From an uncultured Actinomycetes bacterium (lineage in GTDB: Bacteria > Actinomycetota > Acidimicrobiia > IMCC26256 > DASPTH01), in assembly GCA_963721435.1 (NCBI GenBank), contig CAVRJC010000012.1, positions 119,154-183,153 of the forward strand: 64,000 bases of DNA. The letters are read 5' to 3'. A program made the position numbers and the translations under genes. Shown one piece after another: positions 24,445 to 35,405 of the stretch (position 1 is the stretch's first letter; every line of letters begins with the position of its first letter). A model generated the notes under the pieces. That model worked only from the letters and a program-made list of their open reading frames with translations, ran no database searches and was not told where the DNA came from.

Positions 24445-25206
24445 CTAGCTCGATGTATCGGCGTCGCGCTTCTCGACGAACGCTTCACGCAGCTCGTCGG
24501 ACGCGCCCGACAGGTTGAGCTCGAAGGTGAACCCCTGCTCGTAGCGGTACGACTTCTTCACGTCCCACGGGTCGATGCCGTTCAGGCTCTCCTTCGCGGC
24601 GCGGATCACCGTCGGCGACTTCTCCGCGATGCTGCGGGCGACCGCGAACGCTGCGTCACGCAGCTCGGCGCGCGGGACCACCTGGAGCACGGATCCGAAG
24701 TGATGCAGCTCCTCGGCGGTCGCGGTGGCGCTCGTGTACATCATCGCCCGCATCTTGTGCTGCGGGACGAGGCGCGAGAGGTGGGTGGCCGCGCCGAGCG
24801 CGCCGCGGTCGACCTCGGGCAGGCCGAAGTAGGCGTCGTCGCTGGCGATGATGATGTCGGAGTTGCCGACCATGCCGATCCCGCCACCGAGGCAGAAGCC
24901 GTGCACCGCCGAGATCACCGGCACCGGGCAGTCGTAGATGGCGGCGAAGAGGGCGAAGCAGCCCCGGTTCGCACCGACCAGGACGCGGTAGCCGTCGTCG
25001 GCTTCCACCTCCTTGATGTCGACCCCGGCGTTGAAGCCCTTGCCCTCGGCCCGGATGATCACCACCCGGACCTCGGAATCCTCGCCGAGGCCGTTCAGCG
25101 TGTCGGCGAGGTCGAACCAGCCCGCCACCGGGAACGCATTCACGGGCGGGTAGTCGCACACCACTTCCGCGATGCCCTGGCCGTCGATGGTCACGGTGAT
25201 CCCCAC
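24445..25206 (-). CDS. echA20: Enoyl-CoA hydratase, EchA20-like
   Basis: FNAGVDIKE, GFCLGGGIG, LPEVDRGALGAATHLSRLVPQH, SYRYEQGFTFELNL; first gene of the ipdAB operon. Confidence 0.85.
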   Translation of the reverse strand: MGITVTIDGQGIAEVVCDYPPVNAFPVAGWFDLADTLNGLGEDSEVRVVIIRAEGKGFNAGVDIKEVEADDGYRVLVGANRGCFALFAAIYDCPVPVISAVHGFCLGGGIGMVGNSDIIIASDDAYFGLPEVDRGALGAATHLSRLVPQHKMRAMMYTSATATAEELHHFGSVLQVVPRAELRDAAFAVARSIAEKSPTVIRAAKESLNGIDPWDVKKSYRYEQGFTFELNLSGASDELREAFVEKRDADTSS

Positions 25207-25242
25207 GGGCGGGAGCGTACAACGGCGTCTGACGACTCATCA
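25201..25242 (+). repeat. 42-bp direct repeat, left copy (attL-like)
   Basis: CCCCACGGGCGGGAGCGTACAACGGCGTCTGACGACTCATCA, identical to 26549..26590. Confidence 0.95.
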
Positions 25243-25395
25243 CTTCCAAGCCGTTGCACTCGCTCGCTGCATCCCCGCAGGTCACAGCGCCCAACCTGCG
25301 ATGAACGCATCTGGCTCGCAGTTGCGGCTTCACGTCGAAACGTTGCAGTCAAATGGCAGAGTCCGGACACCACATGAGCGAGCCGCCCTGCCGTC

Positions 25396-25428
25396 GGTGG
25401 AAATCCGGTGGATATCAGGTGGATAACT
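25396..25428 (+). repeat. Three tandem 11-bp direct repeats (GGTGGAWAWCN), candidate integrase arm-type sites
   Basis: GGTGGAAATCC GGTGGATATCA GGTGGATAACT, ~155 bp inside the left direct repeat. Confidence 0.55.
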
Positions 25429-25455
25429 GTTGGCAACTGGCGATAAGTTCGCATC

Positions 25456-25617
25456 GTGGCGTACTCCGACCCTGTGCAGCGCGACGTTGAGCGCTTTGAC
25501 GCGTACCGGGCGGCACTGAGCGCGGCAGTCAACGGCGAAGCGCCACCCGAGCGACGTTCGCGCAAGCCCAAGCGACGCGGAACCTCAGAACGACAGGACC
25601 CCCGCCACACGAAGTAG
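25456..25617 (+). CDS. Possible small basic hypothetical protein (53 aa) or gene remnant
   Basis: GTG...TAG ORF AYSDPVQRDVERFDAYRAALSAAVNGEAPPERRSRKPKRR...; no recognisable domain. Confidence 0.25.
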   Translation: MAYSDPVQRDVERFDAYRAALSAAVNGEAPPERRSRKPKRRGTSERQDPRHTK

Positions 25618-25629
25618 CGGGGGCCTGTC
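25592..25629. terminator. Stem-loop inside the islet, probable terminator
   Basis: GACAGGACCCCCGC...GCGGGGGCCTGTC, downstream of the STAS gene on the - strand. Confidence 0.55.
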
Positions 25630-25697
25630 TCAAGCCCGTTCTCCGGCTTTGTGGGGCCAGTGCCGAGCGCGCCTGGCAGCGTACGGGGTGCTCAATG

Positions 25698-25982
25698 TCA
25701 GAGGAGCATCCGGTCGGCGCCGGTGCGCTTCAAGACCTCCAGAATCGAAGGTGAGACGTTGACGAGGCGCAGGGACGGCACACGCTCGGCCAGGTTGACG
25801 AGAACCTGAACGCTGTCCGGGTCGAGTCCGTCCAATGCCTCGCAGTCAACGACAACACTGCCTGTCGCTTCGTGCAACGTCTGCGCAAGCTTCGGCGCGT
25901 GCTCGGCGTCGAGTTCGCCCACGAGCCGAGCGAAGAACACGCCGTCGATCTGACTCGCGGAAATGATGAACCCGGCACTCAT
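25698..25982 (-). CDS. STAS domain protein (anti-sigma-factor antagonist-like)
   Basis: LVGELD...VVVDCEALDGLD...LRLVNVSPSILEVLKRTG STAS pattern, 94 aa. Confidence 0.8.
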   Translation of the reverse strand: MSAGFIISASQIDGVFFARLVGELDAEHAPKLAQTLHEATGSVVVDCEALDGLDPDSVQVLVNLAERVPSLRLVNVSPSILEVLKRTGADRMLL

Positions 25983-26133
25983 CTGTCTGCCCTGACTCTG
26001 AGGGGAGCGCCCGACCCCGCGCACACAATAGCTACCCGTCGCGTCGTGCACGGCGAACATCAGCACGGTGCGGGTTGTCGAGAGGTTCGCACACGCGGAG
26101 TGTGGGTGCGCGAGGTCGCGAACGGACGTTTTC

Positions 26134-26310
26134 TCAGGTACTCGGCTTCGGCGTTGGCTTCGCGGCGAAGGCACACGCGACGGATACGAGCCCTCCGACA
26201 ATCATGACGAGCTTCAGCCAACCTGCGGCAGTGCTGGTGATCGCCAGGATGACGAACAGCAACAAGGCGAAGGATGACCCGACCCGGGCGACTACCAGTC
26301 GTCGTTCCAT
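26134..26310 (-). CDS. Small two-TM membrane hypothetical protein
   Basis: MERRLVVARVGSSFALLLFVILAI...LVMIVGGLVSVACAFAA, two hydrophobic helices; start uncertain. Confidence 0.45.
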   Translation of the reverse strand: MERRLVVARVGSSFALLLFVILAITSTAAGWLKLVMIVGGLVSVACAFAAKPTPKPST

Positions 26311-26548
26311 GATGAGAAAATCGGCGAGGCTTGCTCTCGACTTGAGCGCCTCGGTCACCCGAGTCACGGCAAACGCCGAACCCGTCAAGCGAGTCGGTCG
26401 GCGGGTCCAAGTCGCCGGTGGGCTGCGATGGACCGTTCAGCCGCGGTGCTTGCTGCGTGTACACGTTCAGGCGTTGACGGTGACACCGAGGCTTCGTTGG
26501 AAGTAGTCGACCGCATCGTCAGAAAATGCGCGCTGACCTGCGGAAACA

Positions 26549-26590
26549 CCCCACGGGCGGGAGCGTACAACGGCGTCTGACGACTCATCA
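26549..26590 (+). repeat. 42-bp direct repeat, right copy (attR-like)
   Basis: Identical to 25201..25242. Confidence 0.95.
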
Positions 26591-26592
26591 GA
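26576..26592. promoter_or_regulatory. 17-bp palindrome TCTGACGACTCATCAGA, candidate operator
   Basis: Near-perfect dyad between divergent -10 boxes (TACGCT toward echA20, TAGCGT toward the SDR); recurs at 35389. Confidence 0.6.
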
Positions 26593-26671
26593 TCCGGTCA
26601 GGTAGCGTCCCCGGCATCGACGTGGGCGAGATTCCGGCGGCACGGATGGCCGCAGACACAGGGGGAACCAC

Positions 26672-27526
26672 ATGGGTGCGCTCGATGGGATGGCGGCACT
26701 GGTCACGGGCGGCGCGGGCGGCATTGGCGGCGCGTCGGCGCGCTGGCTGCTGCGCGACGGCTGCTCGGTCACCCTGATGGGGCGCACCGAGTCGTCGCTC
26801 CAGGAGCAGGCCGCAGCCCTCGAGACCGAGGCCCCGGTGGGAACGACCGTGCAGTACTTCGTGGGCGACGCCCACCTCGTCGACGACGTGCGCGGCGCGT
26901 TGAAGCTGGCGACCAAGCCCACCGGCGGGCTGAACATCACGGTGGCCACGGTCGGCGGCGGCACGATGGTGCCGTTCCTCGCCATGAGCGAGGAGACGTT
27001 CGTCGCCGACCTGCTGAAGAACGCGCTCACGTCGTTCATCGCGATCAAGTACTCGGCCCCGCTCATGGCGGCCGGGGGCGGCGGCTCGATCGTGCTCATC
27101 TCGTCGGACGTCGCGCGTATGTCGTGGCCGTTCCTCAACGCGTACTGCGCCGGCAAGTCGGCGCTCGAGGGAATGATGGAGGTCGCGGCCGACGAGCTCG
27201 GCGCGGTCAACGTGCGCGTCAACGCGGTGCGCCCCGGTCTCGTGAAGACGAGCGCCAACACGCGCCTGTTCGACAACGCGGACACGCTGAAGAAGTTCAC
27301 CGACGAGAAGCCGCTCGGCCGGACCGGCGTGCCGGATGACATCGCCGCCGGCGTGCGCTACCTCGCGGGGCCGGAGTCGTCGTGGGTCACGGGGCAGAGC
27401 TTCGCCATCGAGGGTGGCAACGAGCTGCGCAAGGCGCCCTACCTCGAGGGCACCGTGCGCACCCGGTTCGGCGACGAGGTCGTCGACGCCTGCCTCGCCG
27501 GCAAGCTGCCGGAGAGCTTCTTCTGA
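26672..27526 (+). CDS. SDR family oxidoreductase
   Basis: TGGAGGIG, YCAGK, VNAVRPG, WVTGQ. Confidence 0.92.
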   Translation: MGALDGMAALVTGGAGGIGGASARWLLRDGCSVTLMGRTESSLQEQAAALETEAPVGTTVQYFVGDAHLVDDVRGALKLATKPTGGLNITVATVGGGTMVPFLAMSEETFVADLLKNALTSFIAIKYSAPLMAAGGGGSIVLISSDVARMSWPFLNAYCAGKSALEGMMEVAADELGAVNVRVNAVRPGLVKTSANTRLFDNADTLKKFTDEKPLGRTGVPDDIAAGVRYLAGPESSWVTGQSFAIEGGNELRKAPYLEGTVRTRFGDEVVDACLAGKLPESFF

Positions 27527-35388: not shown

Positions 35389-35405
35389 TCTGATGACCCG
35401 TCAGA
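35389..35405. promoter_or_regulatory. 17-bp palindrome TCTGATGACCCGTCAGA, candidate operator
   Basis: Same dyad as 26576..26592; on the - strand it lies between a TAGCGT -10 box and the start of the SDR-ipdF operon. Confidence 0.6.

Follow-up and report, generated by a model that had tools for sequence, protein, structure and literature searches.

A 1.3-kb repeat-flanked islet between the echA20-ipdAB steroid genes and a divergent dehydrogenase gene is probably the remnant of an integrative element

In a 64,000-nucleotide stretch of DNA from an uncultured Actinomycetes bacterium (contig C12, positions 119154 to 183153; hereafter the window), a small islet lies between the echA20-ipdAB genes of steroid C/D-ring degradation and a divergent short-chain dehydrogenase (SDR) gene. 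We consider it likely that this islet goes back to an integrative element, now decayed, which entered by site-specific recombination through a tyrosine integrase. Two results decide for this reading, because the islet is bracketed by a direct repeat in the size class of the genome's attachment (att) sites and retains the 3' end of a tyrosine-integrase gene. A foreign composition, patchily distributed cargo genes, and a single-copy site in relatives also speak for it. The genome is a 4.07-Mb draft in 12 contigs (completeness, 90.6%; contamination, 2.33%) and is probably a metagenome bin.

The enoyl-CoA hydratase gene of the echA20 type (24445 to 25206, minus strand; Pfam ECH_1, 9.4e-41) opens an echA20-ipdA-ipdB run. 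Two CoA-transferase subunits come after it (Pfam), the first of which (ipdA) matches IpdA chains 6co6, 6coj, and 6con at ~1e-87 (6co6, 3.9e-88). The SDR gene (26672 to 27526, plus strand; Pfam adh_short_C2, 2.5e-44) is divergent to echA20. Between them, positions 25201 to 25242 and 26549 to 26590 form a direct repeat that is identical at 42 of 42 positions, both in the sequence and in a repeat search, and at 45 of 47 if stretched to 25247 and 26595. The left copy, an attL-type core, is joined to echA20, and the right copy, an attR-type core, to the SDR side. Allowing up to 3 mismatches, a search of the 4.07-Mb genome finds the 42-mer at exactly two places and its reversed control at none. The islet interior (25243 to 26548; 1,306 bp) has a G+C content of 63.4% against a genome mean of 69.25%, within the lowest 1.5% of 20,290 segments of equal size. 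G+C at third codon positions is 0.74 to 0.79 in the islet genes versus 0.89 to 0.96 in echA20, ipdA, and the SDR gene. A genome search with the 1.5-kb region found no second copy of the islet. The first-pass annotation of this DNA, made from the letters alone, had described a perfect 42-bp repeat around a low-GC segment, and this description is confirmed.

We scanned the genome for isolated perfect direct-repeat pairs, that is, pairs of unique 20-mers 0.4 to 60 kb apart with no other pair within 3 kb. Five of the 55 pairs obtained measure 51, 48, 46, 42, and 41 bp, followed by the next at 29 bp, and the islet pair ranks fourth. The other four pairs of 41 to 51 bp all lie on tRNA genes, and each encloses a PF00589 match and a GC-poor interior (0.65 to 0.67); such repeats are therefore otherwise always att sites in this genome. 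The repeats cover the 3' part of the tRNA, in the company of a PF00589 integrase, in the elements at tRNA-Leu(tag) (C6:266192-296678, 30 kb, 51-bp repeat), tRNA-Ile(gat) (C12:921732-950310, 28.5 kb, 48-bp repeat), and tRNA-Arg(acg) (C12:1109304-1151808, 42 kb, 46-bp repeat). The element at tRNA-Thr(tgt) (locus L054, G000:C12:1484629-1490827, 6.2 kb; G000 is the present genome) has perfect 41-bp repeats made of the 5' 38 nt of the tRNA plus 3 upstream nt, and its integrase is a C-terminal fragment alone (PF00589 positions 92 to 161) beside DUF1501/DUF1800 cargo. Decay with the att repeats kept therefore occurs in the present genome, and the tRNA-Thr element is a half-decayed sibling of the islet. 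Elsewhere in the genome, two near-identical ~1.3-kb copies lie ~8.2 kb apart (G000:C5:477655-479000 and 485821-487200) with perfect blocks of at most 286 bp, and are probably two insertion sequence (IS) copies.

The second deciding result is the integrase remnant (26385 to 26459, minus strand). A tblastn comparison of the genome's nine PF00589-containing frames with the islet gives a single outstanding match, in which residues 290 to 312 of the tRNA-Ile element integrase, its extreme end, align to 26391 to 26459 on the minus strand with 16 of 23 identical. Searched against the whole genome, the 45-amino-acid tail of this integrase has the islet as its top non-self match (33.1 bits, E 2.7e-4), and the next stands at 25.0 bits (E 0.22). 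A profile built from 12 family tails (11 published relatives and the resident one) and applied to the genome in 70,958 six-frame pieces ranks the resident integrase first (2.9e-20) and the islet piece second (2e-6), with no further match below 0.13. When the 150 best representatives are each cut to their final 40 residues, the remnant scores a median of 53 against them; for reversed controls the median is 25 and the highest score 44. The best-scoring family tails read …AAERAIAAHKRLSPGDRL, and the conserved C terminus of the family is …RY(A/G)AS(T/A)A-ERA--AH-RLSPGDRL-stop. The islet frame stops one codon beyond the family stop, such that the remnant has a single codon and the stop beyond the 23 codons that align; it forms the C-terminal part of an open reading frame (ORF) at 26385 to 26588, on which Pfam finds no match, and similarity breaks off sharply upstream of the aligned part. 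As read from these alignments, an integrase gene would have lost its first ~290 codons by deletion, and 26385 to 26459 is its 3' end. All nine PF00589 matches in the genome (eight above cut-off) lie outside the islet. The integrase family of the tRNA-Ile element is large and patchily distributed: with a threshold of E <= 1e-30, it has members in 50 of 264 genomes from the order and 1,814 representatives in a 1.84-billion library.

On the inner side of the right repeat and 90 bp from it, the remnant has its 5' side turned to that repeat; the tRNA-Leu and tRNA-Ile elements have their integrases in a matching position and orientation relative to their own right repeat. The identity block of each of the four tRNA repeats has one of its ends at the anticodon stem-loop; in the Leu and Ile elements, this is the end distal to the integrase. 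In the islet, the repeat end distal to the remnant is an operator-like palindrome, and by analogy this palindrome may have been the symmetric core or crossover site. Of the 23 integrase-family loci (out of 30) in which tRNA genes were counted by ARAGORN, 17 have such a gene in the ~1.5-kb flank and 6 do not, among the latter L069, which abuts a protein gene. The count omitted L060, L071, and L082 (unpublished) as well as L057, L074, L076, and L080 (short, contig-end, or split).

Relatives show what the site looks like when uninterrupted. With positions 24445 to 27526 as the query against 40 relatives, 19 echA20 loci could be compared. All 19 have a single uninterrupted site, where similarity to the window spans ipdAB-echA20 and ends between 25151 and 25242, and islet DNA is found at 0 of the 19. 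The case named in the first-pass annotation as speaking against an insertion, a segment carried by all relatives, is therefore not what we observe. The sequence past the palindrome varies among the relatives' genomes. In the more distant loci L017, L018, and L021, the SDR gene is divergent and directly adjacent to echA20, as in the window without the islet, and the right junction of the window (…CATCAGATCC…) runs on as in relatives (…GTCAGATTCC…), with the palindrome unbroken into the SDR side. The single site in relatives and a right junction like theirs argue, from sequence comparison, that the ancestral arrangement is echA20-repeat-SDR and that 1,348 bp were inserted. Insertion into the divergent echA20/SDR promoter-operator region, as proposed earlier, is thus borne out by all 19 loci. 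The nearest of these (G023:C7) is only 86 to 89% identical and G001, a genome of the same genus, yields no match for echA20, so there is no truly close empty site. G023, which is placed in another genus, holds two ipdAB-echA20 copies (C7:41644-42430 and C13:7476-8259), one of which is 86 to 89% identical to the window versus ~80% in its genus-mates; this closer copy could be a mis-binned contig from a near relative of the present genome or the product of transfer. In L005 (G004:C12), the ORF just upstream of the echA20 palindrome begins MFVSDPIDRLDQVLADLAAEDRSGW…, a start which we take to resemble DUF222/13E12-repeat HNH proteins. No integrase-like start was seen within ~19 kb upstream of echA20 in G035, G004, G010, and G023, as judged from ORF lists without a Pfam scan.

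One locus of another family, L050 (G035:C32), carries an unrelated 1.5-kb insertion at 828 to 2320, in the intergenic region between echA20 and the divergent SDR gene. It encodes a 416-amino-acid ORF (by eye, an AAA-type ATPase) preceded by four 22-bp-spaced TGCATTTCCCCGA repeats, and no duplication flanks it. The echA20/SDR intergenic site seems to tolerate or attract insertions, and this second case, the position of the islet insertion point within the 17-bp palindrome, and the separate distribution of the islet genes would all suit an insertion that was not site specific. Such an insertion could have come about by break capture in a fragile palindrome, through end-joining or template switching, or by transposition with a 42-bp duplication, and the integrase fragment would then be incidental. 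We regard this as quite improbable. The islet has neither a transposase nor significant terminal inverted repeats, and to our knowledge no bacterial transposon duplicates 42 bp of its target; in length the repeat falls in with the att repeats at the four tRNA genes, the range between 29 and 41 bp being empty; and the canonical position and orientation of the remnant by one repeat would be a coincidence.

Public metagenome data bear both on the reality of the islet and on its mobility. A search of public runs gave 20 holders, with at most 47% of the sampled words in any of them, and we compared Logan contigs (k=31) of runs X1, X2, X5, and X7, which come from four studies; uncovered bins were not counted as evidence. 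Islet pieces of 97 to 100% identity occur in all four runs. Contigs cross the junction of left repeat and islet start in X1 (record 4, 25201-25389), of islet end and right repeat in X5 (record 21, 26431-26590), and of right repeat and SDR side in X2 (record 14, 26557-27117) and X7 (record 27, 26541-26691), while the junction of echA20 and left repeat is crossed by no contig among those listed and rests on the assembly alone. The exact 42-mer has 0 matches in JGI metagenome contigs. An assembly artefact or chimera, whose duplication and insert exist in no cell, could be imagined for a 12-contig draft of 90.6% completeness and 2.33% contamination that is probably a metagenome bin, but is very hard to credit when independent contigs of other studies contain the interior and span junctions. 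The X2 sequence differs from the window at 22 of 2,180 nt in the flanks (~1%) and at 14 of 684 nt in the islet (~2%), with two additional 1-nt gaps, both intergenic. This strain has diverged yet carries the islet, and the insertion is therefore older than the strain divergence.

The first-pass annotation had also raised the possibility of a cis-mobilizable or satellite element whose excision acts as a switch. A still-mobile element of this kind, served by an integrase in trans and switching echA20-ipdAB regulation on excision, would be in keeping with the two intact and identical att-type repeats and with the presence of a resident integrase of the remnant's family in the tRNA-Ile element. It would also account for a contig in X1 (293 nt, depth 3.49) that joins 26445-26548 to 25201-25389, the junction of a circle or of tandem copies. 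We nonetheless find it improbable. The X1 junction is ambiguous because a k=31 graph at ~3x depth gives the same path if two chromosomal junction k-mers are missing; nothing else in X1 covers 25170-25200 or 26549-26672, the contig may be an assembly-graph artefact, and X1 may be the sample of origin, in which case it is not independent. A joint in X7 from 25189 to 26607 (skipping 1,417 nt at depth 11.1) could be an empty site in a relative, but its 20 nt on one side leave it too short to be counted. The 42-mer does not significantly resemble the att repeats of the tRNA-Ile and tRNA-Leu elements (887 and 871 of 2,000 shuffles, respectively, reach the score) and no arm sequence is common to them, while the islet is present in four of four runs and its insertion predates the divergence of the X2 strain. 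With islet DNA in every run, no integrase, and a lone ambiguous circle-type junction, an excision switch on ipdAB regulation is not supported. Of the element types put forward earlier, the decayed integrative element is upheld by the integrase remnant and the repeat size class, and the satellite is not, there being no integrase left and no similarity to resident att or arm sequences. The label of an integrative and conjugative element (ICE) or integrative and mobilizable element (IME) is not supported, as conjugation or mobilization functions are no longer present in the islet.

The cargo of the islet is patchily distributed. A single-domain STAS protein of 94 amino acids (25698 to 25982, minus strand; Pfam STAS, 1.3e-9) is of the anti-sigma-factor-antagonist type (TIGR00377, 4.1e-9, below its cut-off). 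It has just two homologues (82% and 71% identity) among 5.8 billion proteins, both of which confirm the start at 25982, and among the 264 genomes of the order close relatives are found in one, the present genome itself. Protein or alignment queries against contigs of species-representative genomes find nothing close, the matches being 36 to 42% identical and in unrelated metagenome-assembled genomes. The second gene, TM58 (26134 to 26310, minus strand), encodes 58 amino acids, among which two hydrophobic stretches can be picked out by eye; 13 homologues share 71 to 86% identity with it, no Pfam family covers it, and it is present in 2 of the 264 genomes. A designation of TM58 as "holin" was rejected, as the underlying PHROGs match (E 0.026) is not trusted. 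For the islet ORFs as a whole, PHROGs gives nothing but matches at E > 0.02, NCBIfam gives the STAS superfamily alone and below its cut-off, and no transposase or other mobile-element family appears with Pfam, PHROGs, or NCBIfam.

On the opposite strand, a basic ORF of 53 codons and uncertain reality (ORF53, 25456 to 25617, plus strand) has a GTG start with a TAAGTT box 6 nt upstream, and neither a homologue nor a family match was found for it. Just upstream lies an 11-bp tandem repeat, GGTGGAWATCN, in 2.7 copies (25396 to 25425, plus strand), which may be a protein-binding array or an arm-type site; it is the sole cluster in the genome with three GGTGGA within 30 bp, and the 32-nt iteron stretch has 0 matches in viral contigs. 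Between the convergent ORF53 and STAS genes is a hairpin (25592 to 25629; -28.9 kcal/mol, z = -6.0), terminator-like yet without a T run. The islet contains 0 tRNA or tmRNA genes and 0 Rfam matches at E <= 1. The STAS protein, the tiny hydrophobic protein, and the hairpin had been noticed in the first-pass annotation and stand, whereas the integrase 3' remnant, the 53-codon ORF, and the 11-bp tandem repeat had been missed.

Several points weigh against a decayed integrative element. The remnant is short (23 to 26 residues), its residues at the position of the family RY, whose tyrosine we take by position to be the catalytic Tyr, read VH, and the 89 bp between it and the right repeat resemble nothing. 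Arm-type similarity to the resident elements is absent, the integrase tail being the sole match to any of the four, and no intact relative of the islet element was found at echA20 or at any other site. Islet DNA has no match in plasmids and phages in a distant-mode search. A palindrome serving as crossover core is an analogy, not an observation. Inverted repeats at or near the islet ends are at chance level, the best end-proximal pair (25275-25290/26528-26543; 16 nt, 88% complementarity) being no better than other chance pairs. As for the cargo, STAS relatives are found neither in metagenome contigs nor in viral contigs, no relative of the STAS family is found in species-representative genomes, and in G012 the TM58 homologue sits in ordinary chromosomal DNA, without flanking repeats or a STAS neighbor.

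The duplicated sequence is itself of regulatory character. On the minus strand, each repeat copy consists in order of 15 bp of the palindrome, 8 nt, TACGCT, 7 nt, and GTG GGG. The GTG start of echA20 is at 25206-25204 with its right-copy counterpart at 26554-26552, and the -10-like TACGCT box is at 25214-25219 and again at 26562-26567. Of the 17-bp palindrome (TCTGACGACTCATCAGA), 15 bp lie inside the repeat. In the left copy (palindrome part 25228-25242) it terminates ...CATCAct, and the right copy alone, together with 26591-26592, has the full form (26576 to 26592), intact, operator-like, and common to both divergent promoters. The sequence agrees in each of these respects with the earlier description of the repeat core as the echA20 GTG, TACGCT, and 15 of 17 bp of a palindrome clipped in the left copy. 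A TANNNT box 7 to 8 nt 5' of the start codon is also seen in the relatives' echA20 loci, a spacing that fits a leaderless echA20 promoter; the boxes were picked by eye. Leaderless promoters are frequent in actinobacteria. A scan for consensus sigma-70 promoters and terminators returned 0 matches. Toward the SDR gene, a TAGCGT box (26603-26608) is separated from the palindrome by 10 nt. Just within the left junction, 25250-25267 is an imperfect inverted copy (14 of 18, 78%) of the GCCGTTGTACGCTCCCGC segment of the repeat, symmetric about the clipped palindrome and statistically at chance level for 1.5 kb; it is suggestive of a second, outward-facing promoter-like box.

A strict CTGAYR-N3-YRTCAG is found at the matching position upstream of echA20 in 13 of the relatives' 19 loci; of the remaining loci, three have a near palindrome by eye (L010, L017, and L019) and three have none (L011, L012, and L015). 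The genome contains 13 palindrome sites with at most one mismatch per half-site, compared with ~3.5 for a non-palindromic control, and the window contains 2 compared with 0 in 100 shuffles. Clean sites sit directly upstream of acyl-CoA-dehydrogenase-like and SDR genes, the pattern of a conserved palindrome at promoters of several pathway genes that characterizes an operator of a steroid C/D-ring regulon. The palindrome therefore looks like a real, if putative, operator, and its regulator presumably has a KstR2-like role. The promoter/operator nature claimed earlier for the repeat is consistent with its conservation in relatives and its recurrence upstream of other catabolic genes. We also observe further TCTGAYG-N3-CRTCAGA copies at 35389-35405 of the window and at G000:C6:5362, C6:30699, and C12:48097, often followed by a TAGCCT-type box near a start codon; with the catabolic genes beside them, these copies look like a small regulon. 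The palindrome is kept between divergent promoters, which argues for a native layout with one putative operator common to the echA20 and SDR promoters.

We propose that an attB site overlapped the echA20 promoter/operator and that the attP of the incoming element carried a 42-bp copy of it, such that integration would have produced attL and attR. Recombination would thus have made the 42-bp repeats, with the crossover perhaps at their symmetric end, the operator palindrome, in place of the anticodon stem-loop suggested by the resident tRNA elements. A later deletion would have taken nearly all of the integrase gene, save the last ~24 codons, together with other element content, leaving the two cargo genes (STAS and TM58), the ORF53/iteron module, and both att repeats. 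At present the islet would be fixed and immobile unaided, with exit conceivable through RecA recombination between the 42-bp repeats or through an incoming cognate integrase. From the anatomy of the locus, echA20-ipdAB would have kept its -10 box and leaderless GTG behind an operator short of 2 bp in the distal half-site, and the intact operator and the duplicated echA20 promoter would face into the islet, co-oriented with the TM58-STAS genes.

The islet offers a clean example of an integrative element that probably died in place, with the tRNA-Thr sibling as an earlier stage in the same genome. Its landing site would be unusual, the shared promoter/operator of the echA20-ipdAB steroid C/D-ring operon and not a tRNA. 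If the duplicated promoter and clipped operator alter expression, a mobile element would have permanently rewired a catabolic regulon. In a further-reaching and rather doubtful version, an integrase lineage of tRNA anticodon stem-loops was retargeted to the operator palindrome, the dead element rewired the locus, and the presence of the islet in all populations reflects selection for this rewiring. Were this true, an intact steroid-responsive operator and a duplicated leaderless promoter would drive the foreign STAS and TM58 genes, and echA20-ipdAB, behind a 2-bp-clipped operator, would be partly derepressed. A more general caution is that integrase-less, repeat-flanked islets should not be taken for active switches.

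Among known systems, the islet resembles miniature inverted-repeat transposable elements and other IS-derived elements in being small, non-autonomous, and flanked by direct repeats. It differs from them in having no significant terminal inverted repeats, a single copy, a repeat far above the usual target duplications, and a remnant of an integrase, not of a transposase; the inverted repeats, short duplication, and transposase or multiple copies of transposons, IS, and miniature elements are not found. Nor is it an actinomycete ICE, as the integrase, replication, and FtsK-like transfer genes of that class are all missing from the islet, or an intact integrase island, which has an integrase gene with a catalytic domain where here ~24 C-terminal codons are left. 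ICEs of the SXT/R391 type integrate site-specifically at the 5' end of prfC, and the element's own copy keeps the gene expressed; they are intact, with short att identity. The islet likewise lies at the 5' end of a protein-coding gene, but its identity extends over 42 bp of promoter and operator and the element appears dead.

The islet fits the definition of a cis-mobilizable element (CIME), given for streptococcal ICE/IME remnants in the defining passages of PMC5704250 and PMC6323972 as an integrative element in decay with attL and attR still in place. It is flanked by attL/attR-type sequences (a 42-bp repeat present twice in the genome, of att size class, with a single site in the 19 relatives' loci), genes for integration/excision and transfer have been lost (no PF00589 or mobile-element family among the islet ORFs), and the remnant (E 2.7e-4 with a single tail, 2e-6 with the profile) points to decay from an integrase-bearing element, as in CIMEs. 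No cognate ICE or IME was found for the islet. The islet differs from CIMEs in measuring no more than 1.3 kb, in residing in a 69%-GC genome with steroid genes of actinobacterial type, and in its target, where a promoter/operator and the opening 6 nt of a protein gene take the place of a tRNA or gene 3' end. Moreover, a conjugative or mobilizable ancestor is not separable from a prophage-like island by the present content. Closest at hand are the resident tRNA elements. They differ from the islet in their tRNA target, in an integrase that in the islet is cut to ~24 codons, and in a dissimilar repeat; they share with it perfect 41- to 51-bp repeats and GC-poor interiors. As in the islet, the 5' end of the integrase faces the adjoining repeat in the Leu and Ile elements, and the tRNA-Thr element is likewise half decayed, with its repeat over the 5' part of the target.

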